A DNA stretch of 64,000 nt. Origin: Chiloscyllium plagiosum. Lineage: Eukaryota. The DNA is taken from positions 101,884,197 through 101,948,196 of the forward strand of contig NC_057718.1 in NCBI RefSeq assembly GCF_004010195.1. Reading direction: 5' to 3'. The position numbers and the translations under genes were made by a program. The notes beneath the pieces were generated by a model that saw only the letters and a program-made list of their open reading frames with translations, did not search any database and was not told the origin of the DNA. This document shows positions 1,563-59,115 of the stretch, piece after piece (position 1 is the stretch's first letter; every line of letters starts with the position of its first letter).

Positions 1563-1848
1563 TTCTGGATCAGTGGTGCTGGAAGAGCACAGCAATTCAG
1601 GCAGCATCCGAGGACAGGCAAAATCGACGTTTCGGACAAAAGCCCTTCATCAGGAATAAAGGCAGAGAGCCTGAAGCGTGGAGAGATTATCTCTCCACGC
1701 TTCAGGCTCTCTGCCTTTATTCCTGATGAAGGGCTTTTGCCCGAAACGTCGATTTTGCCTGTCCTCGGATGCTGCCTGAATTGCTGTGCTCTTCCAGCAC
1801 CACTGATCCAGAATCTGGTTTCCAGCATCTGCAGTCATTGTTTTTACC
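1563..1848. mobile_element. Penelope-derived palindromic non-autonomous element (family 1) with 16-bp TSD
   Basis: Near-perfect inverted repeat 1563-1813 centred on 1688; flanking direct repeat ctgtacctaggctact at 1547-1562 and 1849-1864. Confidence 0.85.
1719..1754 (+). ncRNA. Minimal type I hammerhead ribozyme motif (family 1)
   Basis: CTGATGA (1723-1729), A, stem II GGGC-tttt-GCCC, GAAA (1743-1746), C, GTC cleavage triplet; stem I only 2 bp (TC/GA); mirror copy on the minus strand at about 1622-1657. Confidence 0.7.
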
Positions 1849-2403
1849 CTGTACCTAGGCTACTGACCACCTGTTCTGTCTTCTGATTCCTATACACCCA
1901 AAATTCCTGCACTTTTTGACTCAAAATCCTGAAGGCACATCGAGTGTATTTCTGAGAGGTTTCCATGTGGCTGATATCTTTACTTAGCTCCTTGCTGCAG
2001 TTCAGCTCGATACACAGCAACCCAGATTTTAAGTTTTTAAAAAATTTCCAACACTAAATTGCTCTCTGCAGAAATGAGCCTCTAGATTCTTAAGTGTTTG
2101 CTTTTGGAAAAGTGAGCCAAATGACAACCATTAACAATTATCATGTCATTAAGCAGATGCTTTCACTATTAATTACTGGGTTTTCACTTACTACAGTGGG
2201 TTAATGTGAAATTAATGCAGAAACTTAATAATTTCATGCAAGTCAAGGAAATTTAAGAAATAAGATGATATTTACCGAAAGCTAATGGATCAATACCTCA
2301 GGTTCACATTTTGAAGGCAGTCATTTTTTTTAGTTTGTTGTCCACCAAGAAGAATCTGTCCCTTTACTCTATTCTTCATTGCAGTAATGTGTGAATATAT
2401 ACT

Positions 2404-3388
2404 TGTATGACAAAGCTGTGGCTTTAAGTGGTGTGTTTTGTCATGGTTTAATTTAGAAAGAAATTGGGGGACAGGAGGCAAGCAGTCAATGAGCAGATAA
2501 ACAACATGTGAAGTCTTGAGTGGTTTTTTAAATTTGTAACAATAGAAGCAGTCTGAATGGGTGTGGTCAAACTCTAACCAGGATCTTTAGTTTAGCTTTC
2601 AGCAGTTGCTGTTGAGGTCTTGAAGAAGTGAAAGTCATTTTTCCTATCTCTGTTACTGCCAAAATCTGAGGGTACTCTGCCTGCTAGTGGAGTTGCATGT
2701 GAGACAATCTGTTTGCTGAATTTGCCTTTTTCCAAGGGTATGTTTATGGGGATGTTACTATATTGGAACAGTTAATCAGTAATAGTTACTTTTTGTTAAT
2801 TCATTCACGGTGGCTCAGTGGTTAGCACTGCTGTCTCACAGCGGCAGGGATCCGGGTTCAATTCCCACCTTGGGCAACTGTCTATGTGGAGTGTGCACGT
2901 TCCCCCTGTGTCTGTGTGGGTTTCCTCCCACACTCCAACGATGTGCAGGTCAGGTGGATTGGCCATGCTAAATTGCCCATAGTGTTAGGTGCATTAGTCA
3001 GGGGTAAATGTAAGGGGGTGGAGTACTCTTCAGAGGGTCAGTGTGGGCTTGTTGGGCCAAATGGCTTGTAGGGAATCTAATCTAATCTAAACATTTCCTG
3101 GTCTCTGGATTAACAATCCAGCAATAATACCATTAGGCCAAAACATCTCTGTATCTATTATTCTGTTATGCTTTTCATTAGAGTTAAGTTAAATTATTTC
3201 AATTTATTCTTTTGTTTGTTGTATTTTAACTATAGTGGATGAATAAAGTGTGTTTTGCTTTAAATCCAGTAGTTTGACCAACTGAATTGCATTTGGAACA
3301 TAACACCTTACATTTATCTTTAAAATAAGAAAAGGTTAGGGTCTAGAAATCTTCTGAATATCTTAAGGCAGTTTGGCCTGGTCCATAA
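2404..3388 (+). mobile_element. Possible solo LTR interrupted by a SINE
   Basis: Starts TGTATGA, AT-rich body, AATAAA at 3242, ends near ccataa abutting a CR1 fragment; no TSD verified. Confidence 0.35.
2806..3090 (+). mobile_element. HE1-type tRNA-derived SINE
   Basis: A box TGGCTCAGTGG, B box GGTTCAATTCC, central gatgtgcaggt..gattggccatgctaaattgccc domain, (TCTAA)n tail. Confidence 0.9.
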
Positions 3389-3389
3389 A

Positions 3390-6188: not shown

Positions 6189-6570
6189 AACCTGAGAGTG
6201 TGGTGCTGGAAAAGCACAGCCAGTCAGACAGTATCTGAGGAGCAGGAGAATCGATGTTTCGGGCATAAGCTACTCATCAGGAATGAGGCTTGTGGGTTGT
6301 GGCGGGGGGAGGAGCTGAGAGATAAATGGGAGGGGGTGGGGTTGGCAGTAGAGGTACCTCTACTGAGCTACCTCTACTGAGAATGCGATAAGCCCTCCAC
6401 CACCCCACCCCCTCCCATTTATCTCTCAGCTCCTCCCAGCCCACAAGCCTAATTCCTGATGAAGGGCCCATGCCCGAAATGCCTGCTCCTCGGATGCTGC
6501 CTGACCTGTTGTGTTTTTCCAGCACCACATTCTCAACTCTGATCTCCAGCATCTGCACTCCTCACTTTCT
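6189..6570. mobile_element. Penelope-derived inverted element (family 1) with 11-bp TSD
   Basis: Two inverted arms of the gtgctggaaaagcacagc..catcaggaat sequence; cttagtctaag at 6178-6188 and 6571-6581; degenerate hammerhead core at about 6456-6480. Confidence 0.8.
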
Positions 6571-7139
6571 CTTAGTCTAAGCAGCTGTTCAGTTTGAAAT
6601 GCCACAGGATCAACTACTTGTGAGTCTTAACAAGAAGTGGCTCTTGTCATCATCGAGTTAGACATTGTTGCGAAGACGATGAAGAGTCCCTCATCTTTGA
6701 TGGTTTCCATTGCCCTTTGCATGTAGATTATTCAACTGGAAACATGGGTGGCTTACTGATGGTGGTTAATTGATAGAAAAAAAAGTACCATGGCTGATTT
6801 AGTGATGAGAAAAAAGGTGCTTACTTATGTGTAAGAGCATTTCTGGAAATTTTAAAAAAAGTAATAAGGAAAAAAAGAGAAAAGAAGATGAATTCACCTG
6901 TGAATATAGGTCTGTACTCTCAAGTTCCACCTGATCCAGACATGAGACATAATGCATCTGATTACTTTTTTGAAAATGTATAGGTCTGCACTCTTTGCGG
7001 TCCCAAAATGTTCTAAAAAGATCATTGGAAATTGGAACAGGAATAGGCTGTTCAGCCCCTCAAGCCTGCTTCATGACTGATCTGACACTACTCATGTCCA
7101 CTTTCCTGCCCTTTCTGCACTATCTCCACCCAGTGTGAC

Positions 7140-7740
7140 ATAGAATCATACAGCTCAGAAACAGACCCTTTGGTCCAACCACTCCATGCCGACCACTGTC
7201 CCCAACTGAAGTAGTCCCACCTGCCTGTGCTCGGCCCATATCCCTCCAAACATTTCTTATTCATGTATTTATCTAAGTCTTTTAAATGTTGTAACTATAC
7301 CTGCATTCATCATTTCCTCCAGCAGTTGATTCCATACAAGAACCAGTCTCTATATAAAAGAACTGTCCGCATGTCTTTTTAAAATCTTTCTCCTCACCTT
7401 AAAAACGTGCCCCCTAGTCTTGAAATTCCCCACCCTATTCATCTTATTTGTGCCCCTCATGATTTTATAAACCTCTACAAGGTCACCCCTCAACCTCTGA
7501 TCCTCCAATTACAAAGGTCCCAGTCTACCCAGCATCTCCTTATAAGGCAAAAACAAGGGCTGCAGATGCTGGAAACCAGAGTCTAGACTAGAGTGGTGCT
7601 GGAAAAGCACAGCAGTTCAGGCAGCATCTGAGGAGCAGGAAAATCGACGTTTCAGGCAAAAGCCCTTCATCAGCACTGCTGTGCTTTTCCAGCACCACTC
7701 TAGTCTAGCATTTCCTTATAACTCAAGCCCTCCATTCCTG
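7140..7740 (-). mobile_element. CR1 3' fragment with nested family 1 Penelope-derived insertion (about 7547-7706)
   Basis: CR1 3' sequence on both sides; agcat(c/t)tccttataa duplicated at about 7531-7545 and 7707-7721. Confidence 0.8.
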
Positions 7741-8413
7741 TTAAATATCATGTTAGATTTCTTCTGAAATAATCAAATTGGATGGAGCAATATGCAGTGC
7801 CCAACATTAATCCTTTCAGAACCATTACCTAATGCAACACCTCCCTGAATTATGAGTTAATTCCTTAGAAACATAAGCAAATAAGGATCATTTGTGGCTT
7901 ATTTAACTGCTTTCAAAGATGTACGTTTTCTTCAATTTAGAAATGCATTTTCATTTTTGAAATTGATGGGAGACACATTTGATCTTAACTCAGTAGACAC
8001 TCTGAACACTGTCAGAGAGGGAAAGGATTTTCAATAATTCAGGAGTGTTAAGATAATTATGGCACTCAATGTCTCCTACTTGTAAATGTTCTTTTAAATG
8101 TAACAAAGCTAAATGTTTGCATGGTTATAATTGAGATTTTACAGAAAGATGGACAAACTCTAAATGCGTCTCCAAAATTGAATTACACCTTTGAAGACAT
8201 TCCTTTCCACTTAATACTCTTTATACGACTTGTCACATGTTTTTAAGAATTACTTTTATAAGATTTACGAGTGTGAATCATATAAAATTCACACATATAA
8301 GATTTGACAAATCTTCTGCTGGTTAATGAAAATATGTACTTCCTCGTGGTGTTAGTAACTTGGACAGCAGCTCAAAAAATCCTGGTACTGAAAAATCTGA
8401 AATAGATTTTGTT

Positions 8414-9479
8414 TGTTACGACACAGCCGTGAATCCCTCTGTTAATTAAACCAAACACCCAGAAAAGCCTCATAATCCATTAAAGTATGAGTGACAGAGG
8501 ACTCCCTAAATTCCACTATCTAAAGAAAAAAAAATCAGTTTTATTCTTTAACTTTAAATGTGAACATTAAACAGCAATTGTTTACAACTCTAAGCCTCCT
8601 TTCTCTTAACGGTTTATTATCTACCTCCAATTCTATAACAATGTACTGATCCAATAAAAGCCCCTATTAAATTACTCATCTTAATTTTCAAAGCCACACA
8701 GCAGCTGTCTTCTTTCAGCTGAAGATCTTCTAGATCGTCTTTGGTCTTTTGATGCAAAGATGTTTCATATGAGAAAGGTACTTTTGTTAGTGTTTTTTCT
8801 GGCAGTTACTCTGTCAATGGCAGTTGGTCACTCTCTCTGGCTAACTCTCAAAATGCTGGCTTCTTTATACCCCAAACATTGGATCGTCTCATTGGTTCGA
8901 TGTCGTCCAAAACTGTAAATTCAAATTCAATTGGATTTTAGTATCCTGGGCCTAATTTAAACTGATGGGTTAAATTCGAACTGTTGTGAAGACAGAGCGG
9001 CATGGTGGCTCAGTGGTAAGCACTGCTGCCTCACAGCGCCAGGGACCCGGGTTCAATTCCTGCCTTGGGTGACTGTGCAAACTCCATGCAGACGTTCTCC
9101 CCGTTTCTGTATGGGTTTCCTCTGGGTGCTCCGGTTTCCTCCCACAATCCAAAGATGTGCAGGTCAGGTGAATTGACCATGCCAAATTGCCCCTTAGTGT
9201 CAAGTGCATTAGTTAGAGGTAAACATAGGGTAGGTGAAAGGGTCTAGATGGGATACTCTTCGGAGGGTCAGTGTGGACTTTTTGGGCCAAATGGCTTAAT
9301 TCAATACTGTAGGAAATCTAATCTAATCATAGCAATCGAAGCTCCGGTATTTGTTTCACAGCCAAATGTTACACTCTGAGACTGCTTGTCAGTCAAATGA
9401 CAGGTGCCTGCAAGCTCTCAATGCAAAACAGTTTTCACTCTCTCTTAAAGGTACAGTACACATTTTCAACTTCATGACA
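8414..9479 (-). mobile_element. Probable solo LTR interrupted by a SINE
   Basis: Imperfect terminal inverted repeats TGTTACGA ... TCATGACA, flanks ttgtt/gtgtt (4 of 5 match), minus-strand AATAAA near 8540. Confidence 0.45.
8997..9328 (+). mobile_element. HE1-type SINE
   Basis: A box, B box GGTTCAATTCC, conserved core, TCTAA tail. Confidence 0.9.
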
Positions 9480-10804: not shown

Positions 10805-10998
10805 GTGTGATAATGGAAAAGCACAGCAGGTCAGGCAGCATCCGAGGAGCAGAAGATTCGATGTTTCAGGCATATGCTCTTCATCAGGAATGCCCGAAAT
10901 GTCGATTCTCCTACACCTTGGATGCTGCCTGACCTGCTGTGCTTTTCCAGCACTACATTCCCAACTCTGATCTCCAGCATCTGCAGTCCTCACTTTCT
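10805..10998. mobile_element. Penelope-derived inverted element (family 1)
   Basis: Inverted arms turning around at catcaggaa/tgcccgaaa (about 10890), inside the hammerhead motif. Confidence 0.8.
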
Positions 10999-11256
10999 CA
11001 GACAGTAGTCTGAACTCAAGTTCATGCCTAAAATCCAGACACTTTTTGAAAATGAAGAGGTTGATGAGGGGGTTCTATTCTCTGGAGGTGAACAGCAGAC
11101 AGAACAAATCAACCAGCAGCTTCTGGTGATTATTCTGCTTGTCGCAAGTTTCTCTTTTTTAAAAAGATAACGCAGTAATAGAAGCAGGCTTGGACACATA
11201 GTTATTTCTCGAGCAGTATTTGACCCCATGACAGCCAACAGGTAATTATTTGCGTA

Positions 11257-12961: not shown

Positions 12962-13308
12962 AGGTGGCACAGTGGCTCAGTGGTTAGCACTGCTTTCCCA
13001 CAGCACTCAGGCCCGCTGATAAATTCAGCCTTCGGACAACTGTCTGTATGGTGTTTGTACATTCTCATTGTGCCGATGTAGGTTTCCTCCAGGCGATGTA
13101 GTTTCCTCCCCCACTTCAAAGATGTGCAGGTTAGGTGGATTGGCCATGCTAAATTGACCACAGTGTCCAGGTAAATGCAGATTAGGTGAATTAGCCATGG
13201 GAAATGTAAGTTTACAGGGACGGGGTGGGCCTGGGTGAGATGCTGCTCGGAGAGTCAGTACGGAGTTGATGGGCTGAACTGCCTGCTTCCAAACTGTCGG
13301 GATTCTAA
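12962..13308 (+). mobile_element. HE1-type SINE
   Basis: A box and conserved core; B box degenerate. Confidence 0.85.
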
Positions 13309-13565
13309 AGATTCATAACTGTAATTGAACATAGAACAACTCCTGTTTAGTGAGGAAAAGCTGGAATTTCAACATTGGGTGTCAAATGTAAATATGTTTA
13401 ACGATACTGGTCAGGTACGTTGTACTGCAGGCCTGGAGTAGGTGGGATTCGAACCCAGACCTTCTCAACCATGAAAGTAGGGATGCCACCACTACACCAC
13501 TAGAAGAATACCTGATGTATTTTTCCAGAAATAAAAGTTCAAGGCAGGTCTTTAAAATTGGAATC

Positions 13566-13655
13566 AAAACAGAAATTGCTGCAGAAACTCAGCCAGATCT
13601 GGCAGCACCTGTGGTCAGAAAGCAGAGTTAATGTTTTGAGGCCTGTGACCCTTAG
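13566..13655 (-). mobile_element. Family 3 short element (cagatgctgccagacctgctgag type), degenerate
   Basis: Similar to copies near 28800, 34790, 45553, 49560, 57270 and 60725. Confidence 0.65.
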
Positions 13656-15372: not shown

Positions 15373-15517
15373 ATGTTTGCAATCAGTAAAATTAAATTGG
15401 CACGGTTTGCCTGTCATCTATTTCCATTTTTGCTGCTTGGATTAACACAAGATGTGAAAGCAGATTTCATGGACAAACTGGCAAAGAGGAAAGTCTGTGC
15501 TGACAAGGATTGTATTT
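15373..15517 (+). CDS. OTOR: Otoraplin (MIA family SH3-like secreted protein), exon 1
   Basis: MFAISKIKLARFACHLFPFLLLGLTQDVKADFMDKLAKRKVCADKDCI: signal peptide plus the FMD(K/R)LA..K.CAD..C motif; phase-1 donor GTAAGT at 15518; an alternative in-frame ATG exists at 15301. Confidence 0.9.
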
Positions 15518-15797
15518 GTAAGTAGATTTTCTACATTTTTCAGTAAAAAAAGGTTTCCCCGATATAAGCATGTCACTGTTCATATTCAGCAGTGATTGAA
15601 AAATAGGTATTATTTCATGATAGTCTCACATTGAAATCTAGCTGTTACTATCCTTGGAACAATAAAAACTCACTTCCCTGGGATAGCTGCAGTAGGTTTA
15701 ACTTAGTGCCTTCACCAATGCTGTTGGTCCTGCACAGTTAGGAGTGAACACATATTGAACCAAATCTTCTCAATGTCCTTGACCCTGAATCATCATG

Positions 15798-15942
15798 ATT
15801 TGGAGGTGCTGGTGTTGGACTGGGGTCTACAAGATTAAAAATCACACAACACCACCTCCTTCATCAGAACGGCGCTTTGAAAGCTAGTCCTTCCAGACAA
15901 ACCTGTTGGACTATTACCTGGTGCTGTGAGATTTTTAACTGA
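15798..15942. mobile_element. Penelope-derived inverted element (family 2), degenerate
   Basis: ggtgttggactggg..aaaaatcacacaac and gaaagctag..gttggactat..cctggtg arms as at 25021-25212. Confidence 0.7.
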
Positions 15943-16065
15943 ATCATCACAGTCACTCAGTGAGGCAAGTGGCAGTATGATTTCATCAGGTGAGCCCTTC
16001 ACATTCCCTGCTGGTCTTTCAGCATCGTTACCTCATGCCAAGCTTCAGAATAACCTTTTTTTTAA

Positions 16066-16381
16066 TAGAATCTCCACAGTGTGAAAGCAGGCCTTTAGGC
16101 CCATCAAGTCCACATCGATCCTCTGAAGGGCATCCCACCCAAACCCAACCCCTGCCCTGCACTTCCCATGGCTAACCCACCTAACATACACACCCCTGGA
16201 TACTATGGGGCAATTTAGAATGGCCAATCCTCCCTAACCTGCACATCTTTGGACAATGGGAGGAAATCCACAGAGACACGGAGAATGTGCGAAATCCACA
16301 CAGACAGTCACCCGAGTGTGGAATTGAATCCATTTCCCTGGCGCTGTGAGGCAGCAGAGCTAACCACTGAGCCACTGTGCA
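16066..16381 (-). mobile_element. HE1-type SINE
   Basis: Reverse-complement A/B boxes at 16320-16380 and conserved core. Confidence 0.88.
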
Positions 16382-16791
16382 GTTCTGGCTTCTGCAAAGC
16401 ACCAAAAGAAATGTGAACTTACCCAACAATTCTCTATGCAGATCTGAATCTCACTCTGGCCTCGCTTGCCAATGTTTGGAAATCAAAAAGTCAGGCTTGA
16501 GGGATTTGACTTTTCAATTGCTTTTGTTTTCTTATTTCAAAAACATACTTTATTCATAAAAATATCTTTATATACATATATAGTCTCAAAAGCAGTTTGG
16601 TTCTGTACAGTAATCTAAGAAGAAACAAACTAACATTGGAGTTTGACTCAAAGAAAATTCTGTTTGAAACAAACAAATCCAATTTTGTACATGTACAACT
16701 GTAGCAAAAACCACTGCATTTCTCTGTGTACGTCCCTTGCAAAGGCACATTCTTCACGTTGTCTTCATTAATGTTTTAAAAAGACAGTAGC

Positions 16792-19700
16792 GGGAGATTC
16801 AAGATGGCAGCAACCCAGCAAGTCTGAGTCTGTAGTGCTCTGAGTTGAAAATGTGTTGCTGGAAAAGCGCAGCAGGTCAGGCAGCATCCAAGGAACAGGA
16901 GAATCGACGTTTTGGGCATAAGCCCTTCTTCAGGAATCAGCAATCAGGGCCGTCGAAAAAATATTCCCGAACGGGAAGGGGAAGGCCAGCTGGCAGGTTT
17001 TTCTTGGAGCAATAGCTCCCTGAAATATTAAAGCTGGAGAACAGGATCAGGCCAGGTACGGGTAGAGTGTGCCCACCTGGAGAACAGGATCAGGCCAGGT
17101 ACGGGTAGAATGTGCCCACCTGATCGCTATATGCAGGCCCAGGTCGGACCAGCACCCCCAGCTGGTCCTGTTCCGGCTCCAATGCTACAGAGAGGAACAG
17201 ATGCTCCTGGAAGCCTCTAGAATCCTGGGGAAGGATCCCCAGGCCATGGTGTACAAGGGCTCTAGGATTATGCTGTTCCAGGATTTTTCTCCAGCCATGG
17301 TCCGCAAAAGGAGGGCATTTGATGAGGTGAAGAAATGTCTGAGAGACTTAAACATCCAATATTCCTTGCATTACCCAGCAACGCTGCGCTTCAGCCATGA
17401 AGGATACGTTTATAAATTTGGATCGCCGGAGAAGGCTAAAGAATTTTTGGACTCTCTTAAATAGACTGTAAGAATTAAACCGTATGGCTAATGATGCTAT
17501 TTTGCACCCCCCCCCCAGTTTACCTTTTCTTTCTCTTTTCATCATCTTTATTATTTAATATCGTCTCCCAGGGGGGCAGGGAGGGGGGGCTTATTTGTTA
17601 TCCACTATGTGATTTCATTTTTTTTTACAAGCTGGGCTGCTTAGTTGATTCATGTTGGGGGGGGGGGGGGGGTGGGTTGCATTTGCTTTGTCCTACCTCA
17701 ATTTCTTTTTAGACCAGGGGTTCTTTTTTGTTCTGTTATTATACTTATCTATTACTTGCTGGGATTGTAACTTTATAGTTTTATATGTTTATACTTTGTA
17801 ATATCTTTACTAAACGGATCTAAGTGTTGGTGTGGGTGGGGGGATGGGGCACTCACTTTTAACTTTGGTTTTATAATACACTTGAATTTGTTTATTATGG
17901 GGTGCCTGAGTTGAGGGCGGGGCACTGGCTGGGAGAGGATAAGGTGGGTTTACTGACAGGTAGTGATGCCCCCTGGGAGCAAGGAGGAAAATCTCCTTTT
18001 AAATATGTTTTATATTTTTCTTATTTAGAAATAGTTTTTAATTATATTGGCGTTAACGTATTAAAGAATTTCTACTTTTGTGAATTTTCTACGGTCTGTG
18101 CTTGGTGTTCTTCCTCCTGGGGGGGTCTCGGACTTGCCTGGTGCACCTGGAATGTCAAGGGGATTAATTCCCCAATCAAAAGAAAGAAAATACTGTCAAG
18201 CCTCAAAAAGAAAGGGTTGATATAGCTCTCTTACAGGAGACACACTTCTGGATAAAGAGCACTTAAAATTACAACAAGGAGGATTCGATCAGGCCTTCTT
18301 TTCATCTTTTAATTCAAAAAGTAGGGGAGTAGTCATTCTCATTCAGAAGAAGCTTCCTTTCAAAATCTTAAGTCAGATAAAAGATGAATCTGGATGGTAT
18401 ATACTGATCAAAGCCCTCATAAATGGAGAGGAGTATGGAATTTTGAATCTTTATTGTCCCCTGGCACACCCCTTCAAATTTATAACGGAAGTGTTCTCCA
18501 AACTGATGGCTTTTGAAGTTCGTCATACAATTATAGGAGGAGATTTTATTTGTACTATGGACCCAGAGATAGACAGGATACCCAAGAGTACTGCGGGTAT
18601 ATCTCTTAGATCCAGACAATTGGCAGATTTGAATAAGTAGGAAGTAGGGTTAGTAAATGTGTGGAGGTGCCTTCATCCGCAGAGCAGAGACTTTACTTTC
18701 TACTCTAATCCACATAAGTGTCATAATAGAATTGATATGTTTTTTGCTCCTTCAACATTTTTAAACTCCGTATTATCCTGCAAAATAGGTAATATAATAA
18801 TCTCTGATCATGCTGCAGTATATATGGAAGTTAAGACTAGGGACGATGAGACAAGCCACCGACATTGGTGTAAGGATTCCTTCTTAATGAAGGATAGCAA
18901 ATTCGTAAAATATTTCTCTCAAGAATTGGAAATTAACTCAGGCACGGCCAGTAACCCGTCGGTGATGTGGGAGACCATTAAGGCTTATGCGAGAGGTCTC
19001 ATTATTTCATAATCAGTGACACAGAAAAAACAAAAGGGAGAACAACAGCATCTGCTCGAGGCTCGCTTGAAGGCAGCTGGGACAGCATATGTTGACAGGC
19101 CCTCTATTACTAAGCTACAAAGGATCACAGCCCTTAGGGAGCCTTGAATACCGCACTTACCCAAACGGCAAAGAGGGAAATATTATTTGCAAAGCAAAGA
19201 CTATATGAATACGGCAATAAGCCTGTTAGATACCTAGCATATCTCGCAAGGAAAAAAAAGGCCCCTCATGCTATCACGTCCATTAGGGAAAGTGCTAGTA
19301 CTCTGACTCATGACCGCAAAAGGATCAATACGGCCTTCAGAAAGTTTTATTCTGATCTGTATAAATCACAGGATTGTGAAGAGAGATCTAAGAAGATGGA
19401 GTCCTTTTTTAAAAGCCTGGCCTTTCCAGACTTAACCCCGGAACAGGTGTCGATCCTGAATGCTCCCCTGACAACCCAGGAAGTACTTGATGCAATCAGG
19501 CAGCTTCAGAGCGGTAAAGCACCTGGCCCAGATGGATTCCAGGCTGAATTCTACAAAGAGTTTATAGGGGTACTGGCTGGCCCACTCATAGACATGTACA
19601 ATGATTCATATAGTCAGGGCTGCCTCCCGCCTTTGATGAGAGAAGCAAATATTTCTCTCATTCTTAAAAAAGGAAAGGCCCCAGAAAATTGCACATCATA

Positions 19701-22261
19701 CAGACCAATATCTTTGCTAAATGTAGATTTTAAAATTCTTTCTAAAACATTAGCATTTAGGCTGGAGAGGGTTTTACCATACATCATAAAAGAGGATCAG
19801 ATGGGATTTATCAAGGGCTGTAGATCATCTAATAATATTAGAAGGGTTTTAAATGTGATTCAAGTCTGTCATCAGGAAAGAATACCGGGAATAGTAGTCT
19901 CTTTAGTTGCGAAGAAGGCATTCGATCGGGTTGAATGGTCATATCTGATTTACACACTGGAAAAGTTCGGTGTCGGACAGGTATTCGCTAAATGGGTCTC
20001 AATATTGTACAATGACCCCAAAGCAGTCGTGATTACTAATGGTTTAGGCTCAGATAGCTTCAGTGTAGGTAGGCGCTGTCGTCAGGGATGTCCTCTCTCA
20101 CCGTTATTATTCACACTAATAATTGAATCACTAGTGGAAGCTATACGGGCCGATTCTAATATAATGGCTCCGAGGGTTGGTTCGGGTAAACATAAAATTA
20201 CCCTTTATGCAGACGATGTTCTCCTTTTTCTTAGTGATCCTTTGATATCCGTGCCCCGCCTGATCCAAATAATCAATTTATTTAGTGCGTTCTCAGGTTA
20301 CAAAATCGGAGGCCATGCCGATGGGTGGTCTCGCTAGTATGTCCAATTTATTGGAAGGGTCTTGCTTACCCTTACTGTGGTCTCTGGAAGGTTTTTTATA
20401 TTTAGGTATTTTTATCACCTCAGTATTTGCTCAGCTGTATAAAGCCAATTTTGTGCACCGATGAGAGAGGATAAGGCAGGACCTTCAACGCTGGGGGAGA
20501 TCTCCCGATATCTTGGTTAGGCAGAATAGCTCTAATTAAAATGAATATTTTGCCTTGTCTCCTATACCCTATGAGAATGCTCCCTGTAATGTTGCAGAGG
20601 CCGGCATTGCATAAACTATACAGTTGGCTTGGTTCTTTTATTTGGAATCATAGACGGCCCCTTATTAAATTAAAGAAGCTGCAGCTTCCACAAGCAAGGG
20701 GAGGGCTGAATTTTCCAGACTTTAGGAAGTACCAGCTGAATTCTCTATTAAGCTACGTAGCCGACTGGGTCTCGTCTGACCCACAATAAATTTGGCTGGA
20801 CATTGAGGATTCTCAAGCAAAGTGTCCTCTCATTAATCTCTTATTTTTAGATAAGATGAAAGTTATTATGGACCATTGTAAAAACCCTATTGTATTAAAT
20901 ACAATTAAAGCTTGGAAGATAATGCAGCAGACAAGGGCAATTCACAAGAAATCTCTCCTTATACTCTTATAGTGAGAGCATGGAATTTTCAACCGGGATA
21001 CACAGACGCTACATTTAAAACCTGGAGGTCCAGGGGTATTTCTTGCTTAGGGGATCTGTTCGATGTTGTCTTTTGAACAGCTGCACCAGAAGTTTGGACT
21101 GCCTAATGGAGACCTTTTTCGATATTTCCAAATTCGAGATTATATACAGAAGAAGACCACATTATTGGATAGCTCTTATAAATCGGATAGGGAAAGAAGA
21201 GTGTTATGGCCAATGGGTCCACCCTCGGTCAGCTGAATTATTCTATAAAATATGACAACCCTTCCTGAACTATCACTCATTACAGAACGAAGTTTAGGAA
21301 GACATGGAACAATTGTTTAAAACATAGAATCAGGAATTGGGGTTGGAAATCCCTTCAGAAATGTGGGACGACATCTGGGAAAATGCCAGAAAGATCTCCA
21401 TTTGTAATAGAACCCAAGCTATTCAATTAAAGATACTCCATAGGACTCACATAGCACCGGAGCGATTGGCAAAATTTAGGGCAGGAGCATCTCCAATGTG
21501 TCCTAAATGTAAAATAGAAGTGGACACTCTCACACACTGCTTATGGACATGTCATAAGATCCACAAATACTGGATGAGAGTAGCAAATGCTCTGACAGAA
21601 ATCTTGGGAGCGGAAATTGGAGTAGATCCAGTATCTCTTCTCCTGGGCTTTTTGAGCCTGCCCTCCCTAGATGTGCACGGGAGGAAATTATTCTCCAATC
21701 TCTCCTTTTTGTGCAAGGAAAAATATCTTAGTAAACTGGGTAGCTGAGGGCTCTCCAGGACTTTCGAATTGGCACAGGTTAATCATGGGATGTATTCCCC
21801 TCGACTTCCTTACAAATATGGTGCACCAAAAAAACTGAATTATTCTATAAAATATGACAACCCTTCCTGAACTATATAGATATTTTGGCCATATTGTCAA
21901 GGGCTTTTATCTAGTTGTGGTAGTGGTTCTGGCTGGCCTGGGGGCTCCCAGGGGGAGGAACCCCGTATGAATACAGGTTTTATTATGACTTGATGTTAAT
22001 TCATTCTGAGCATGTACTTCATTATTTAATTACTATGTTATCTTGTTTTTGAGTAATGTAAGATATTTTATCATATGCTTTGGTTATTTGTAGGTTAGAT
22101 TAGTACTTGAGTCTTTTTTTTCTTTTGTTGTGTTTTGGTTATTATTTATTTAATATTTAATTGTATATTAGTGTTTATATTTGTTTGTGTTATTTTGTAA
22201 GTTTGTAAAAAAAAGTTTTAAAAAATTTCCTTTTTCTTCAATAAAAATATCTATTAAAAAT
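16792..22261 (+). mobile_element. Near full-length decayed LINE-1 (L1 clade) element in OTOR intron 1
   Basis: 5' ggagattcaagatggc; ORF1 C-terminus (RIMLFQDFS..RKRRAF..YPATLR); ORF2 APE (TWNVKGINSPIKRKK, GGDF, SDH), RT (KAPGPDGF, YRPISLLN, RQGCPLSP, YADD), CCHC knuckle CPKC..HCLWTC; AATAAA and A-rich end; TSD agaca(g/a)tagc at 16782-16791 and 22262-22271 at a TT/AAAA site; many stops and frameshifts. Confidence 0.93.
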
Positions 22262-22371
22262 AGACAATAGCCATCCAACCCTGCTTTACCTCTACCCACA
22301 GAGTGACTGTGACAGGAACACAGCACATATTTATACCGACACAAAGACAGTGATAGTTACTCAGCACATAT

Positions 22372-23065
22372 TTATAAGAACATAAGAACTAGGAGCAGGA
22401 GTGGGCCGTCTGGCCCCTCGAGCCTGCTGCGCCATTCAATAAGATCATGGTTGATCTTTCTGTGGACTGAGCTCCACTTACCCGCACACTCACCATAACA
22501 CTTAATTCCTTCACTGTTCAAAGATCTATCGATCTTTGCCTTAAAAGCATTCAACAAGGTAGTCTCAACTGCTTCCCTGGGTGGGGAATTGTACAGATTC
22601 ACAACCCTCTGGGTGAAGAAGTTCCTCCTTAACTCAGCCCTAAATCCGCTGCTCCTTATTTTGACTCTTTGTCCTCTAGTTCTACTTTCACCTGCCAGTG
22701 GAGATGACCTCCCTCCTCCTATCTTATCTCCTCCCTTCATAATTTTATATGTTTCTATAAGGTCCCCCCTCATTCTTCTAAATTCCAGTGATTTTAGTCC
22801 CAGTCTACCCAATCTCTCCTCATAAGCCAACCCTCTCAATTTCAGAACGAACCGAGTGAACCTCCTCTGCACTCCCTCCAGTGCCTGTACATCCTTTCTC
22901 AGGTAGGGGGACTAAACCTGTACACAGTACTCCAGGTGTGGCCTCACCAGCACCCTACACAGCTGCAACATAACCTCTCTGCTTTAAACTCAATCCCTTT
23001 AGCAATGAAGGACAAAATTCCATTTGCCTTCCTAATAACCTGCTGCACCTGCAAACTAACCTTTT
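22372..23065 (-). mobile_element. CR1 3' fragment
   Basis: VQRRFTR..LAYEERLGRLGL..MRGDLIETYKIMKG; (TTCTTATG)n tail on minus. Confidence 0.9.
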
Positions 23066-25017
23066 GTCTAAAAGTTGAAATTGGAGGAAGGGTCATTTTG
23101 ATGGTATTAGGCAAGAACGTTCAAAAGCTGACTGGGGGCAGGTGTTCGCAGGTAAAGGGACGGCTAGAAAATGGGAAGCCTTCAGAAATGAGATGAGTCC
23201 AGAGACAGTATACTCCTGTTAAGGTGAAAGGAAAAGCTGGTAGGTATCGGGAATGCTGGATGACTAGAGAAACGGAGGTTTTGGTTAAAAAAAAAGGAAG
23301 CATATGTCATGTATAGACAGGAGAGATCGAGTGAATCCTTAGAGTATAAAGGCAGTAGGAGTATATTTAAGAAGGAAATCAGGAGGACAAAAAGAAGTAA
23401 GATAGCTTTTGCAAATAGGGTTAAGGAGAATGCAAAGAGTTTTTACAAATACATTAAGGACAAAAGGGTAACTAGGCAGAGAATAGGGCCCTTCAAAGAT
23501 CAGCAAGGTGGCCTTTGTGTGGAGCCTCAAGAGATGGGGGTGTTACTAAACAAATATTTTGCTTAGTGTTTACTGTGGAAAAGGACATAGAAGATATAGA
23601 ATGTAGGGAAATAGATGGTGACACCTTGAAAACTGTCCATATTACAGAGGAGGAAGTGCTGGATGTCTTGAAACTCATTAAGATGGATAAATCACCAGGA
23701 CCTGATCAGGTGTACCCTAGAACTCTGTGGGAAGCTAGGGAAGTGATTGTTGGGCCCCTTGCTGAGATATTTGTATCATCGATAGTCACAGGTGAGGTGC
23801 CGGAAGACTGGTGGTTGGCTAATGTGGTGCCACTATTTAAGAAGAGTGGTAAGGACAAGCCAGGGAACTATAGACCAGTGAGCCTAACTTCGGTGGTGGG
23901 CAAGTTGTTGGAGGGAATCCTGAAGGACAGAGTTTACACATATTTAGAAAGGCAAGGATTGATTAGGGATAGTCAGCATGACTTTGTGTGTGGGAAATCA
24001 TGTCTCACGAACCTGTTTTGTGTTTTTTGAAAAAGTAACAAAGAGGATTAATGAGGGCAGAGCGATGAACGTGATCCATATGGAGTCGAGAGTATGGTGC
24101 TGGAAAAGCACAGTAGGTCAGACAATGTCCGAGGAGCAGGAGAATCGATGTTTTGGGCAAAAGCCCTTAATCAGGAATGTCATGATCTATATGGACTTCA
24201 GTAATATGTTCAACAAGGTTCTCCATGGGAGACTGGTTAGTAAGGTTAGATCTCATGGAAAACAGGGAGAACTGTCCATTTGGATACAGAACTGGCTCGA
24301 GGGTGGTGGTGGAGGGTTGTTTTTCAGACTGGAGGCCTGTGTCCACTACTTTTTGTCATTTATATAAATGATTTGGATGTGAGCATAAGAGGTACAGTTA
24401 GTAAGTTTGCAGGTGACACCAAAATTGGACGTGTAGTGGACAGCAAAGAAGGTTACCTCAGATTACAACAGGATCTTGATCAGATGGGCCAATGGGCTGA
24501 GACAAGTCCAGATGGAGTTTTATTTAGATAAATGCAAGGTGCTGCATTTTCAAAAAAAAGAAATCAGAGTAGGATCTATACACTTAATGGTAAGGTCCGA
24601 GGGAGTGTTGCTGAACAAAGAGACCTAGGAGTGTAGGTTCATAGCTCTTTGAAAGTGGAGTCACAGGTAGATAGGATAGTGAAGAAGGCGTTTGGTATGA
24701 TTTCCTTTATTGGTCAGAGTATTGAGTACAGGAGTTGGGAGGTCATGTTGCGGCTGAACAGGACACTGGTTAGGCCACTGTTGGAATATTGCGTGCAATT
24801 CTGGTTTCCTTCCTATCGGAAGGATGTTGTGAAACTTGAAAGGATTTAGAAAAGATTTACAAGGATGTTGCCAAGGTTGGAGGATTTGAGCTACAGGGAG
24901 GGGCTGAAGAATCTGGGGCTGTTTTCCCTGGAACGTCGGAGGCTGAGGGGTGTTATTTAGGGTGTTATTGTAGAGGTTTATGAAATCATGAGGGATATGG
25001 ATAGAATAAATAGACAA

Positions 25018-25820: not shown

Positions 25821-25960
25821 ATGCGATCTCAACTGGCCGTGTAGTTGATGACTACATTGCACCCGACTGCAGGTTTCTCAACCTGAAGGAGGGACAGCTG
25901 ATCTACATCTATTCCAAGCTGGTTCGGGAACGTAAAGGAGGCGAATTCTGGTCAGGAAGT
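25821..25960 (+). CDS. OTOR: Otoraplin exon 2
   Basis: tgtctttcag acceptor; (Y)AISTGRVVDDYIAPDCRFLNLKEGQLIYIYSKLVRERKGGEFWSGS; 140 nt; donor GTAAGT. Confidence 0.96.
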
Positions 25961-37497: not shown

Positions 37498-37679
37498 TCA
37501 GGAACATGCAAAAAGGCTGAATGAGAGACCTTGGAACGCCACACCTTAAGGTCTCGTGCCATTTGGCCTTTGATCATCTCCCCCCTCCCAGTGTTCTCCC
37601 CCTCATCCGAGCCCCTTTGACACCATCCTGTCACATGAATGTTTCCTGTTGACCCACCCAGCCTCCTCCCCCAGAGCAC

Positions 37680-38059: not shown

Positions 38060-38283
38060 CCCAGTCTAGGGCACACTGTCTGCTCTAGGGGAGATTACCC
38101 AGTCTCGGGAAGATTAGTCAGTCTAGGAGAGGTCACCCAGTCTAGGGAAAGTCACCCTCAGGGAGGTTTCCCAGTCTCGGGGAGGTTACCCAGTCTAAGG
38201 GAGGTTACCCAGTCTAGAGGAGATTACCCAGTCTAGGGGAGGTTACCCAGTCTTGGGTAGATTACCTAGTCTAGGGGAGGTAC
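38060..38283 (+). repeat. 19-bp minisatellite (cccagtctaggggaggtta), about 11-12 degenerate units, overlapping the probable 5' coding region
   Basis: Units start at 38098, 38117, 38136, 38155 (15 nt), 38170, 38189, 38208, 38227, 38246, 38265. Confidence 0.95.
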
Positions 38284-38369
38284 GCAATTCTCTCTCCTGT
38301 GATGTGAAGCATTCTAAGTTTTTCCAAGGGAGTTTACTGAGAAAGCCGTTTCCCTGTCACAGTGCTGGG

Positions 38370-41654: not shown

Positions 41655-41741
41655 GTTGAAACTTTATTGCTGGAACAGCACAGCAGGTCAGGCAGCATCC
41701 AGGGAACAGGAGATTCGACGTTTCGGGCACAGGCCCTTCCT
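41655..41741 (-). mobile_element. 87-bp truncated family 1 insertion with 12-bp TSD
   Basis: tactcgggcaat at 41643-41654 and 41742-41753; insert ends within the hammerhead core. Confidence 0.8.
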
Positions 41742-42725: not shown

Positions 42726-43719
42726 ACACCCCAAAACCCCACCCCATTACCCAACTACCAACACCTTGCCCTATCCCCAACATCCCAAAACCCCAGCCCC
42801 CCATGCACTCACCAACACCTCCCCACACCAGACCCTAAACCCGTTCCTTACTCATTCTCTCTCCACAGATGCTGCCAGACCTGCTGAGTTTCTCCAGCAA
42901 TTCTCTGGGCCAGGATCCATTGTGGGGTTTAAGAGGGGATGCTGGTGTAATTAAAGGCAGAGATTGTGATTCCGATGTAATTTCAATTGAATCCCCGATG
43001 ACTGGGAATTGTTCACGGCTGAAAGACATTGTCTCCTTAGCAACTGCTACAATTTCATGTTATCCTTTTAATTCCATCGGTTAAACTAGTGTAACCATTA
43101 ACAGGCGGTTAATCGGAAATGTTATAAAGGACAGTGAGATCAGAAATAAACAACTTGGCCAGGACAGATGAGCTTCAGCTATGGTCCACCACCAGGGGTC
43201 CTCGATGTATCACTTTCACTTGCTCCTTGCTCCTCAGGAGATGTGGGTGTCACTGAGCAGGCCAGTATTTGTCATCCATCCCTAATTGCCCTCGAGAGGC
43301 TCGCTTGGCCACTTCGGAGGGCAGTTAGGAGTCAACCCTGTTGCTGTGGGTCTGGAGTCACATGTAGGCCAGACCGGGTAAGGACGCCAGATTTCCTTCC
43401 CTAAAGGGCAGTAGTGAACTGAATGGGTTTATACAACAATTGATGACCAGCTTTCAATTCTGGACTTTATTAAATGAGTCTTAATTCTGCCTGGTTGCTG
43501 GGTGAGAATTAGCCCTGGCCTCTGGATTATGAGCCTAATGGTGTAATTACCATTAGCTCCCAGATGGTTTGATGTCAGCTGTAAGTGTGAATGCCATCCT
43601 GGGGGTAGACTCTATCCAATATCGCAGCATGGATACAGAGATCAAGAGCAACTTATAATCAACAGAGTGGATCATCACAGTGCCCTCTCGATGGGGAAGG
43701 ACAGCTAACAAAACTACCA

Positions 43720-44085
43720 GCATTTATGAAGCTCCTTTAACATGCAACAATGTGCATTTATATAGCTCCTTTAATATGCAGCTACATACATTTATATAGC
43801 TCCTTTAACATGCAACAATGTGTATTTATATATTTCCTTTAACATGCAACTACATGCATTATCTAGTAATTAATAACATGCAACTATGTGCATTTATATA
43901 ACTCCTTTAACATATAACTATGTGCATTTACGTAGCTCCTTTAGCATACAACTATGTGCATTTACGTAGCTCCTTTATATGCAACTATGTGCATTTATAT
44001 AGCTCCTTTAACATGCAACTATGTGTATTTATATAGCTCCTTAATATGCAACTACATGCATTTATTTAGCTCCTTTGACATCCAA
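43720..44085 (+). repeat. 34-bp AT-rich minisatellite, about 10 units
   Basis: Unit atgcaactatgtgcatttatatagctcctttaac. Confidence 0.92.
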
Positions 44086-45568: not shown

Positions 45569-45606
45569 AGTTCTGAGGAAGGGTCACTGTGCCCGAAACG
45601 TTAACT
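45569..45606 (+). ncRNA. Minimal type I hammerhead ribozyme motif (family 3) within a short element at about 45553-45698
   Basis: AGTT-CTGAGGA-A-GGGTCA ctg TGCCC-GAAA-C-GTT-AACT: 4-bp stem I AGTT/AACT, GUU triplet, palindromic AACGTT. Confidence 0.72.
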
Positions 45607-45719
45607 CTGATTTCTCCCCACTGCCAGACCTGCTGAGCTTTTCCAGCAGTTTCTGTTTGTGTTTCTGATTTCCAGCATCCACGGTTCTTTCAGTTTTTAT
45701 GAGTAGAAATAAATTTCTC

Positions 45720-49293: not shown

Positions 49294-50284
49294 GTATGTG
49301 CTGTCAATTATTTAACCATTCGGTGTAATGATGAGCTAAGTGAGTCATTCCCGCCTGTCAATAATAAATAGCCCGTGCCACCCTTTGTCCTGGAATTTAC
49401 TTTAATTTAAAGCTGTGCATAGTTTTGTAAAGACTGAACGATGTAGTGTTTGTCTGAGGCTTCAGAATGTGTGATTGTTTTCCGGACAGCTGCTTAAACA
49501 AATTAATAAAAGCTCTTTGAAATGCACAAGTGCAAAAATATTTAATAAAACCTCAAAGAACGTCGGATGCTGGAAATCAGAAACAAAAACACAAATGGCT
49601 GGAAAAGTTCAGCAGGTCTGACAGCACCTATGAGCAGAAATCAGAGTTAATGTTTCAGATCCAGTACTGACCAAGGGTATTGCTGTAATGTAACTTTTTT
49701 TCTTCACTTCTCTAATCTGTACCAAAGGATTGTAGCTAGGTACCTTAATGGAACGTGTGGTGCTGGAAAAGCACAGCAGGTCAGGCAGCACCTGAAGAGC
49801 AGGAGAATCAATGTTTAGGCCAAGAGCCCTTCATCAGGATGGTGCTGGAAGTGGCGATGTATGAACTTTTCACTGTAGCCATTTGAGTACGTGTGACAAT
49901 AAAGCTAATTCAATTCAATTCACTGGACCAAAAATGTTGACTCTGGTTTCTTTCCACAGATGCTGCCAGACCTGCTGAGCTTTTCCAGCAATCTCTGTTT
50001 TCATTTGTGCAAAGTATTGATCCAATTTCAGGCATAGAGAGAACTTTGAAGCTGTCATTGAGAGCAGCAGTTTCTGTTTTTCCCACTACTTTGTCCTTGC
50101 CCGAGATTAATGGTTACTTTTTACTTGCTCCTTGAATAATTTCTTCATAACAGTCTTAAGATTGTTGCAAGTACAATTAAATCATGGTCCACTTCAGGAT
50201 ATCATTGAGGGGGAAGCCCTGGTGTGCCTTTGAGTGATATCAGTGATGGAATCTAATCGTCAGGAGTTTCATCAGTCTCTGTAT

Positions 50285-50603: not shown

Positions 50604-50674
50604 CCGTATCTGTTGCTATTGATCGAAAATGATGTAAAGTGATCATTGTTTGATTTTCTGACATGTTTCTGCAG

Positions 50675-56733: not shown

Positions 56734-57539
56734 CAGCTTCTTTTTTTTAAAATCAGCAAAATGTAGAATTAAATTAATATTTGCCTCTTTTGTGACCCCT
56801 GTGGTATAAATGAATTTGCTGTATATTGAATAGTGATTACAATAGACATCCAGGTATTAGTTTTGCCTTACAGCATCAATGTATAATGCTTAGTTTTCAT
56901 TGCATATGAACTTCTTGAGATTATTTCTGAAGTAGTGGAGACTTTATTCTACTGTGAAATGTAACTGTTTAATCAATTTTGTTTTCATCAAAAGCGGGAA
57001 GATACTGTCGAATGATCCCTTGTAAGGGGTCTGCATGATATTGTTAAATAGCTTGTCAGCTCCAATTATATTTATATAGCACTTTTAATTGATAAATTGC
57101 CCCAAGGTTCTTCACAGGAAGATTGTAGAAGAAAGTATGGCACTGCTGCAGTTAAGCAGAGATTAGGTCAGAACACCAAGTGCTTGAGATAGATTTTAAG
57201 AGGGGAATCTTTAAGGAGGAAGAGAAGATGGTGAGGCAGAGAGATTTAGAAAGGGAATCCCAGAGATAAGAAGGGTCACTGGACCTGAAAAGTTAATTCT
57301 GACTTCTCTCCATAGTTGCCACCTGAATGGCTGAGATTTTCCAGCAATTTCTGTTTTTGATTCAGATTTCCAGCATTCACAGTTCATCCAGCTTTTTTTT
57401 TTGCCCAGAGATTCAATGGCGCAGTGATGACATTCAGGGAGACCCAACAGGCCAGAGGCCTCCTTCCAGAAGGACAAGAGTAAGGTTTTAATTAGCACTC
57501 CATCCATACCTTCTACATTCGCACCTTCCACAACATCGA

Positions 57540-58140
57540 ACATAGAACATTACAGCACAATGCACACCCTTTGGCTGTTGATGCTGTACCAATCTGTGGA
57601 AACAATCTGAAGCCTACTTATCCTGCCCAATGACCATTTAAATGCCCTTAAAGTTGGCGAGTCTCCTACTGTTGCAGGCAGAGTGTTCCATGCCTTTATT
57701 ACCCTCGGAGTAAAGAAACTACCTCTGACATCTGTCCTATATCTATCACTCCTCAATTTAAAGCCGTGTCCCCTCGTGCTCGCCGTCACCATCCAAGGAA
57801 AAAGACTCTCACTGTCCACCCTATCGAACCCTGTGATTATCTTATATGTATTGAAAATGTGTTGCTGGAAAAGCGCAGCAGGTCAGGCAACATACAAGGA
57901 GCAGGAGAATCGACGTTTCGGGCATGAGCCCTTCTTCAGCGTCCTGAAGAAGGGCTCATGCCCAAAATGTCGATTCTCCTGCTCCTTGGATGCTGCCTGA
58001 CCTGCTGCGCTTTTCCAGCAACACATTTTCAGCTCTGATCTCCAGCATCTGCAGTCCTCACTTTCTCCTAGAAGACATTATCGTATATGTCTCAATTAAG
58101 TCACCTCTCAACCTTCTTCTCTTTAGTGAAAACAGCCTCA
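57540..58140 (-). mobile_element. CR1 3' fragment with nested palindromic family 1 insertion (about 57850-58076)
   Basis: TSD attatc(t/g)tatatgt at 57836-57849 and 58077-58090; intact minus-strand hammerhead core CTGAAGA..GGGC tcat GCCC GAAAC GTC at about 57907-57941. Confidence 0.85.
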
Positions 58141-58789
58141 TGTCCTCATAACCTGGCACACATTGGCAGCAGTGTGCACCATCTACAAGATGCATTGCAA
58201 TATCTCACCCAGGCTCCTTTGAACATCCCAAACCAGTAATCTCAACCACCTAGAAGGACAACAGCAGCAGATATATGGGAACACCACCCCCTGCAAATTC
58301 CCTCAAAGCCACTCCTCATCCTGACTTGGAAATATGTTGCCATTTCTTCACTGTCGCTGGGTCAAAATCCTGGAATTCCCTCCCTAAGATCAGCACATGG
58401 ACTACAGTGGTTCAGGAAGGCAGCTCACCCCCACCTTCTCAAGGGCCAGCGAAGGATGGGTAATAAATGCTGGGCCCAGCCAGGAAAATCCACATCCTGT
58501 GAATAAAAAGGGAAAACAAATCTTGGAGGGTTTCCAGTCAGAACTAAGAGAACCCTGGCCATGAAGGGTATTTGAGAGAATTTTAATATCAAAACATTGC
58601 TCAAGCAGAACCCAATGTATTTGCAGATGCATTCTATTTTGTTCAAAACACACACAATTTGTAGTCACAGTCAGTCAGCGTCTTATAAATTCCAGCTTTC
58701 AGAATAAAACCAGCCTGATTCCAGGTTAAAACTCTTGAGACAGATTCTGAACAAAGCCTCACACCCACAATACAGTGTCTGACCGATAT

Positions 58790-59115
58790 GTCACTTTTTG
58801 TATATTGCTATCGCTCTGCTTGATTGTCATAATAGCACAGCACTGACATTGACTTTATAAACACTTTACACACCATCGAATGCTCTGGGTCACCTGCAGA
58901 CACTCGACTCATACCAGTTGTATGATCTTCTGATCTCTCTGCCCTTGATGTCTCTGCGTATGAACCCAGTGACTGTGTCTCTGTGTCTCTCCGCACCTGA
59001 CGAAGGGGCAACACTCTGAAAGCTTGTGATTTCAAATCAACCTGTTGGACTATAACCTGGTGTTGTGTGACCTCTGCCTCTGTCCACCCCAGTCCAACAC
59101 TGGCACCTCCACATC
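58790..59115 (+). mobile_element. Family 2 Penelope-derived 3' region with degenerate hammerhead
   Basis: CAC CTGACGA ... GAAAGCTT GTG at about 58994-59028 followed by gttggactataacctggtgttgtg. Confidence 0.6.

Follow-up and report, generated by a model that had tools for sequence, protein, structure and literature searches.

The 64,000-nucleotide stretch of the Chiloscyllium plagiosum genome analyzed here (contig NC_057718.1, positions 101,884,197 to 101,948,196, hereafter the window) contains numerous short repeats, some of which carry a minimal hammerhead ribozyme motif. We conclude that these repeats are very probably 5′-truncated, often 5′-inverted copies of the pseudo-long terminal repeats (pLTRs) of three endonuclease-bearing Penelope-like families. 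A preliminary description of the window had recognized three ribozyme-bearing families, linked them to Penelope and classified them as non-autonomous, retrozyme-like elements; the observation and the Penelope link are right, and the element class is wrong. The class to which the repeats do belong is already known, since minimal hammerheads at the ends of Penelope-like elements were described in 2014 (PMC4209133; this paper and those cited below are drawn on for the parts covered).

Hammerhead motifs were sought with a descriptor combining CUGANGA, a stem II of at least 4 bp, GAAA, paired positions 15.2/16.2, UH and a stem I of at least 2 bp. It returned five matches in the window, at 1653 on the − strand and at 1723, 25139, 45573 and 58997 on the + strand, versus none in any of 100 first-order Markov controls. 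Direct reading recovered the three motifs reported earlier, all on the + strand, and agrees with their interpretation as minimal hammerheads, the core CUGANGA...GAAA being accompanied by an NUH triplet (GUC, CUA and GUU in families 1, 2 and 3). The family-1 motif (1719–1754, +) has stem II GGGC/GCCC, the stem III palindrome ACGU, a GUC triplet, a 2-bp stem I and a predicted cut between 1750 and 1751; a second family-1 hammerhead, with one C-to-T change and a G-U pair in stem II, lies in an inverted arm (1622–1657, −). The family-2 motif (25136–25170, +) has stem II GGAGC/GCUCC, the palindrome AGCU, stem I CAC/GUG and a CUA triplet, with the predicted cut at 25167/25168, and the family-3 hammerhead (45569–45606, +) has stem I AGUU/AACU, the palindrome ACGU and a GUU triplet, with the predicted cut at 45602/45603. 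Stem II of family 3 had been given as GGGTCA/TGCCC, which is wrong: the genomic form is GGGUC/GACCC (97 exact genomic matches), and the mutated copy at 45573 has 4 bp paired. Stem II thus differs in its pairs from family to family around an unchanged CUGANGA/GAAA core, as had been claimed; it contains a G10.1-C11.1 pair with an extra base in front, and its loops vary freely among recurrent variants. The self-complementary stem III of all three families is suited to dimers. The stem I flanks are indeed complementary, with just 2 bp in young family-1 copies, where the stem is weak, 3 bp in family 2 and 4 bp in family 3. An Rfam scan of the window at E up to 1 gave no hammerhead match, and its 22 matches were mostly to miRNA-hairpin models, on account of the fold-back insertions. 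Further hammerhead variants with other stem II sequences, each seen twice, occur outside the three families in the flanks of the genomic loci that we sampled (numbered L001 onward); more families therefore exist.

The Penelope origin is borne out in each family by coding sequence for the reverse transcriptase (RT) and/or the GIY-YIG endonuclease adjoining the motif. In family 1, RT words occur 5′ of the motif on the same strand (L001, L013, L016, L023, L025) and GIY-YIG frames stand beside it in direct or inverted orientation (L007, L017, L018, L024, L034). Pfam recognized GIY-YIG in three of 11 pieces (L017 at E 1.6e-5, L024 and L018; one above the curated cut-off) and RVT_1 in two. The most complete order was read in family 2, where locus L098 runs from RT (RVT_1, E 1.9e-8) through a linker, a YIGET frame and the 3′ untranslated region (UTR) to the motif. 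Endonuclease-like frames lie 5′ of the motif in two of 30 family-3 loci (L075 and L082; tblastn E to 3e-14). Of the arrangement RT followed by a C-terminal GIY-YIG, both domains are therefore represented in families 1 and 2 and the endonuclease alone in family 3, and a C-x4-C-x2-C linker between RT and endonuclease was found in families 1 and 3. A CX2-5CxxC linker belongs to Neptune and Nematis (Craig 2021, PMC8557442), and the source elements are probably endonuclease-bearing Penelope-like families of Neptune/Nematis type, to judge from these sequences. Three paired arrangements considered as candidate elements were rejected: the family-1 pairs about 2 kb apart in L031 and L032 are not intact, and L097, with two family-3 motifs 2,369 nt apart, has no Penelope frame. 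In L097 (2801–5330) each motif belongs to one unit of a direct repeat, which extends into the sequence upstream; the DNA separating the two is not Penelope-derived.

The anatomy of the copies argues for the same origin. All three families stop at the 3′ end at one of two sites about 35 nt apart, and among copies chosen by an anchor downstream of the motif (54 in family 1, 53 in family 2) the resulting tail is present in 27 and 29, respectively, and an inverted arm lies within 420 nt in 19 and 22. The 5′ ends of family 1 cut the core in 26 copies, lie at most 20 nt 5′ of the core in 12 and at 21–74 nt in five, and extend further or into N in 11; the corresponding numbers for family 2 are 11, 27, 3 and 12. 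A young-subfamily family-1 insertion at 1563–1848 displays the whole pattern in order: a 16-bp target duplication (1547–1562), an inverted arm (1563–1687, −), a forward pLTR (1691–1813, +), a 35-nt tail (1814–1848) and the second copy of the duplication (1849–1864). It folds as one long predicted duplex of about 124 bp (−265.6 kcal/mol, z −37.8). Each of these traits has a precedent: the tail has been tied to two internal priming sites (Frangieh 2024, PMC11167929), the layout of inverted 5′ copies, tail and truncation has been described (PMC8557442, PMC3846280), and single and opposite-strand minimal motifs derived from truncated elements have been reported in thousands (PMC4209133).

We propose that the element's own RT/endonuclease would nick the target and that copying would begin at one of two internal sites about 60–100 nt behind the hammerhead, giving either the short end or the tail. 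Reverse transcription would as a rule end prematurely, above all where the hammerhead begins on its 5′ side; that so many 5′ ends lie just before the core may reflect a transcript start at that place or drop-off of the reverse transcriptase at the structure. Folding back or restarting of the copying may yield the inverted arm, and repair would leave a target duplication of 7–16 bp. Active masters would keep the ribozyme fold, with stems that differ between families and a fixed core, and the hammerhead would cut only as a dimer through its 4-nt palindrome, possibly with protein help. Inserted copies would decay afterwards.

A different origin has to be weighed for the short copies, namely that they form a separate non-autonomous, retrozyme- or SINE-like (short interspersed nuclear element-like) family with a unit of about 100–140 nt, consisting of hammerhead and tail. 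Such a unit would be transcribed by itself and copied in trans by Penelope enzymes, a route that we regard as improbable to the same degree as the family itself. Most copies are indeed short, their 5′ ends cluster where the hammerhead begins (at most 20 nt away in 27 of 53 family-2 and 12 of 54 family-1 copies), 270 RNA reads lose their match at 1719, and pLTR-related retrozymes were found in the single chondrichthyan genome sampled, according to the covered part of Li et al. 2026 (bioRxiv 10.64898/2026.07.22.740005). Against this, the 5′ ends are spread, about a fifth of the copies extend into the 3′ UTR or beyond, and exact 32-mers are common to short copies and to copies joined to RT or endonuclease sequence. 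The 219 distinct core contexts include 11 cases of neighbouring motifs on one strand less than 1 kb apart, with spacings that are all different (155–938 nt), and 19 inverted pairs. No head-to-tail tandem unit of fixed length was found in the window, where spacings are 1.4–17.6 kb, or in the 219 contexts, which are a sample and not the whole genome. The motifs are moreover minimal, whereas the tandem repeats of retrozymes carry canonical type I motifs (PMC7229834), and no canonical type I hammerhead, with a 6-bp stem I and loop-loop contacts, was encountered: stem I is 2–4 bp and Rfam lists no hammerhead. One poly(A) RNA run listed no joint indicative of small circular RNA, in a library type that is unsuited to circles. 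The retrozyme-like, non-autonomous class assigned earlier is therefore abandoned, as the families run into their own endonuclease or RT sequence, their 5′ ends vary and no tandem unit is repeated. Animal retrozymes are defined as tandem units (PMC7229834, bioRxiv 10.64898/2026.07.22.740005); as far as their sequence tells, the window copies are not retrozymes, while a retrozyme family may exist elsewhere in the genome.

Several points nevertheless weigh against an origin of the repeats as truncated pLTR copies of three endonuclease-bearing families. The 5′ ends that cluster immediately before the core, in 27 of 53 family-2 copies, could also be those of a short unit with its own transcript, and the sampled copies were the first places listed, mostly on one chromosome. 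No intact full-length element, with a single open reading frame between two pLTRs, emerged from twelve longer stretches, several of them partly N. L098, the longest of the coding copies examined, contains a frameshift, and the first cysteine of its linker is replaced by G. We inferred the continuity of family 1 from RT to motif from order and strand, because many of its loci are partly N. The Penelope link of family 3 comes from two loci with no RT, and the placement in a clade comes from the linker motif and not from an RT tree.

The division into three sequence-distinct families stands for family 2, which is separate, and less so for families 1 and 3, which share the stretch behind the motif (76–93% identity over 25–76 nt). 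This common sequence, together with endonuclease frames that are 36–53% identical, relates families 1 and 3 to each other. The high copy number first suggested from the window holds for the genome (3.56 Gb), in which a family-1 32-mer has 15,500 exact matches, a family-2 32-mer 6,791 and a 34-letter family-3 motif with one N 97, amounting to 22,388 for the three probes compared to 0 for reversed control probes. Anchors 3′ of the motif have 8,035 and 25,509 matches. The descriptor matched 40 times in 462,106 bases of flanking sequence of sampled loci (87 per Mb; the window has 5 in 63 kb), from which we extrapolate about 3 × 10^5 descriptor-passing motifs genome-wide, a value that partner arms and repeat-rich regions inflate. 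In several family-2 copies, some of them at loci L039–L049, short internal deletions have removed the hammerhead core or stem II, and CUC replaces CUA in some members of the family.

With copies in such numbers one can ask if Penelope hammerheads cut their RNA in vivo and if the cleaved RNA is then copied. A further possibility, unlikely in our view and additional to the truncated-pLTR origin, is that a few percent of templates were cut by the hammerhead in the germ line and that the reverse transcriptase ran off their ends, leaving 5′ junctions right after GUC. For the youngest subfamily of family 1 we tallied by hand the first 100 of 319 matches and dropped 10 (six indel or duplication variants and four second listings), which left 90. 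Junctions fall at the first base after GUC in 21 of these, plus three that are CpG-ambiguous, compared to 5, 0, 2, 2, 2, 2 and 3 at positions −7 to −1 and 8, 4, 5, 9, 11 and 13 at +1 to +6, so that the bond exceeds the mean of +1 to +6 with a Poisson P of 1.6e-4. Counting junctions to non-element DNA, about 11 lie at the bond versus 4.7 (P 0.009). The whole-genome counts agree: 273 matches have a purine at −1, and true junctions made up 13 of the 30 inspected, for an estimate of 118 (range 70–171), next to 12 junctions (12/20) at the next base upstream and about 27 (27/39) at the next base downstream. Some inverted arms also turn exactly at the bond (L218, L305/L306, L122). A non-templated G as the cause of the excess is not favoured, given that G stands before 14 of 40 junctions at +2 to +6, near chance by hand count.

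On the contrary, the older family-1 subfamily (first 100 of 2,469 matches, by hand) has 8 junctions at the bond, plus 3 ambiguous, versus 6.8 per downstream position (P 0.38), and in family 2 (first 100 of 1,074 matches, by hand) the bond has 3 unequivocal junctions and about 4 ambiguous ones, while 13 lie one base upstream. Family 3 is too decayed for junction scoring. The cleavage-site excess was thus sought in four sets and is present in one. Microhomology to the target or the arm (G, GA or GATT) is present at many junctions, and in 15 of the 30 purine cases a 17-nt stretch is duplicated from the first base after GUC onward; slippage at GAT is therefore a live cause. No pile of RNA ends appears in one informative run, and in the covered part of Frangieh 2024 (PMC11167929) cleavage was unneeded for insertion in vitro and no RNA ends were found at the site. 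On balance we hold it to be doubtful that the genome records hammerhead activity in vivo, with about 3% of youngest family-1 copies deriving from GUC-cut RNA and the mass of short copies from run-off of internal priming on a 5′ leader starting a few bases before the hammerhead. If such a record were real, junction mapping over some 10^5 copies would be a direct in vivo read-out of the times at which Penelope hammerheads cut; the excess in one young subfamily makes in vivo cutting computationally testable and is not replicated yet. Our searches of the literature on Penelope hammerheads (e.g. PMC6765202, in the part covered), subscription papers aside, turned up no description of 5′ junctions lying at the cleavage bond. 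Two further features occur at this bond. The 17-nt tandem duplication from the first base after the predicted cut recurs in family 1 (L205–L230, 15 of 30 loci), either as independent events or as a subfamily. In the family-1 loci L127, L176 and L290, sequence beyond the tail, where the element body starts, is rejoined to the pLTR, two of the joints lying at the cut site; these could be template jumps or circles.

Two host genes occupy much of the window. An MIA/otoraplin-family gene (15373–29109, +) has coding exons at 15373–15517, 25821–25960, 26069–26179 and 29086–29109 with GT-AG edges, and its exon 2 matches MIA structures (E 1.8e-9); it may be OTOR, the name given in the preliminary description. 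An intermediate-filament gene (38370–63151, +) begins with a coding exon from 38370 and has its last long frame at 62084–63151; its Pfam Filament match (E 2.6e-4) is below the curated cut-off, and the label filensin-like, from the preliminary description, is a presumptive one. Five of the 22 insertions lie in the MIA-family gene, ten in the filament gene and seven outside, so that the proposed seeding of ribozymes into introns is right for the DNA motif, with 15 of 22 insertions within the two genes, and is not upheld for working ribozymes, as only three intragenic motifs pass the descriptor. We find it most improbable that these intronic copies act as host devices cutting OTOR or filensin-like pre-mRNA. 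The three motifs (25139, 45573 and 58997) are indeed in sense orientation within the genes. However, 25139 is buried in a predicted fold-back, as are 1723 and 1653, and 45573 and 58997 are single motifs that belong to two families, lie 13.4 kb apart, differ in their stem III palindromes and are not predicted to fold as hammerheads alone. No same-family, same-strand partner passing the descriptor lies near any descriptor-passing motif of the window, whose density (5 per 63 kb) equals that of the sampled flanks (40 per 462 kb). In the covered part of Cervera 2014 (PMC4209133) no cleavage was seen with a single minimal motif and weak cleavage with dimers, and cleavage by the hammerhead of PAc needed the element protein (PMC11167929). 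Taking the fold-backs, the lone motifs with unlike palindromes and these published cleavage results together, the window copies are most likely inert passengers. Energy folding of monomers and homodimers gave no active hammerhead form, a result that says little on activity. In one poly(A) RNA run, from an organism that is perhaps not that of the window, 1,180 of 12,955,460 records fell on the repeat, in both orientations and from many diverged copies; none fell on the unique flank 1859–2100, and the run showed no pile of molecule starts or ends.

Insertions in the window were located by BLAST with four references taken from genomic loci, which gave 31 pieces in 23 clusters, or 22 insertions with 6193–6571 taken as one. 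This agrees with the roughly 20 copies or fragments counted earlier, with the correction that 5 of the 31 pieces carry a complete motif that passes the descriptor. Target duplications of 11–16 bp, which had also been noted, flank six of the 22 insertions, and nine have duplications of at least 9 bp. Besides the insertion at 1563–1848, family 1 includes older inverted pairs at 6193–6571 (both motifs damaged, 11-bp duplication), 10806–10999 (one core decayed, the other cut) and 57852–58068 (the − arm with core and stem II and without stem I, the + arm with a mutated GAAA). A family-1 copy at 7550–7698 (−) begins at the core, without the 5′ strand of stem I, and has a tail, a short inverted arm and a 9-bp duplication. 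Older family-1 copies lie at 16842–16937 (−, GAAA mutated) and 24088–24178 (−, core mutated), both antisense in intron 1 of the MIA-family gene, and at 41668–41741 (−, cut inside the core, 12-bp duplication). Family 2 is present in the same intron 1 as inverted fragments without a complete core (15796–15940, 11-bp duplication) and as an insertion at 25018–25212 with a tailed arm on the − strand, a tailless arm on the + strand and a 13-bp duplication, which forms a predicted fold-back (−116.2 kcal/mol, z −17.1). A diverged single family-2 copy with a tail (58994–59116, +) has the core CUGACGA..GAAA, a CUU triplet and a 10-bp duplication. Family 3 provides two copies with a tail, a single one at 45569–45699 (+), which carries the hammerhead described above, and one at 57270–57396 (+), cut inside the core and flanked by a 9-bp duplication. 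It also accounts for decayed copies at 13555–13653 (−, core lost), 28798–28920 (−, with tail, antisense in intron 3 of the MIA-family gene) and 60722–60803 (+, core lost), and for short 3′ fragments at 34815–34855 (−) and 42858–42904 (+). The stretch 49546–50009 holds three separate decayed copies: family 3 (49546–49665, −), older family 1 (49756–49839, −) and family 3 (49920–50009, +).

A composite insertion without hammerhead (30988–31322, −, 11-bp duplication) looks like the product of template switching between two Penelope families. It runs from a family-1 endonuclease fragment (31227–31322, 87.5% amino acid identity over 32 residues) through an older and then a young family-1 3′ piece to a family-2 3′ end with tail, the last switch, across a short CCTG match, falling where the hammerhead begins and deleting the motif. 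That it represents an amplified family was rejected, its junction 32-mer being found once in the genome.

Other repeats share the window. A second, more abundant dispersed family of 300–350 nt, presumably tRNA-SINE-like (HE1-type), occurs at 2806–2975, 9001–9330, 12968–13317, 16053–16380, 28275–28626 and other places. A LINE-1-like element of about 5 kb in intron 1 of the MIA-family gene (17066–21747, +) has ORF1, endonuclease and RT (Pfam RVT_1, E 3.5e-31), is broken into several frames and is adjoined on its 5′ side by the older family-1 copy at 16842–16937. Minisatellites with units of 44, 34 and 19 nt lie at 35932–37606, 43704–44078 and 38060–38304, the last directly before the start of the filament gene. 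A short frame at 8330–8446 (+) with EIDFVCYD resembles the last MIA-family exon and may be chance.

Our results add scale to a known class, with at least 22,388 exact and about 3 × 10^5 descriptor-passing motifs. In the covered part of PMC4209133, the minimal hammerheads of metazoan Penelope-like pLTRs have the same core, extra base before stem II, G10.1-C11.1 pair, palindromic 15.2/16.2 and short stem I, and they likewise occur as several families per genome, mostly as single copies from truncated elements, with opposite-strand pairs 100–700 bp apart. The numbers differ, our three probes giving well above the approximately 4,000 motifs in coelacanth and 9,000 in Xenopus reported there, as does stem II, which is 4–5 bp here versus 7–8 bp in Schistosoma. 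No shark term occurs in the searched supplement file or the main-text portion covered of that paper, and in the covered part of PMC6155905 'shark' appears as a shape name only; our literature search found no report on ribozymes in cartilaginous-fish Penelope elements, though Repbase/Dfam and some supplements, outside that search, may list shark families. Endonuclease-bearing Penelope-like elements of Neptune/Nematis type (PMC8557442, PMC3846280), to which ours are likened by the linker motif and not by an RT tree and from which no intact element was recovered here, share RT followed by C-terminal GIY-YIG, the Cys linker, heavy 5′ truncation, an inverted 5′ copy, a 30–40 bp tail and target duplications of about 8–10 bp or longer. 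Poseidon PAc of the green anole (Frangieh 2024, PMC11167929) also has a hammerhead in the pLTR and two downstream reverse-transcription starts that explain the tail. Its open reading frame starts inside the hammerhead, whereas the first long frame seen in family 1 would start beyond the tail, and its RNA has no ends at the cut in the part covered, whereas a junction excess exists here, in one subfamily only. Animal non-LTR (non-long terminal repeat) retrozymes (PMC7229834, bioRxiv 10.64898/2026.07.22.740005) have in common with the present copies a type I hammerhead, a relation to pLTRs and long target duplications. They consist of fixed-size head-to-tail tandem units with mostly canonical motifs and form circular RNAs, whereas the copies described here are dispersed or inverted, variable in length and continuous with coding sequence.

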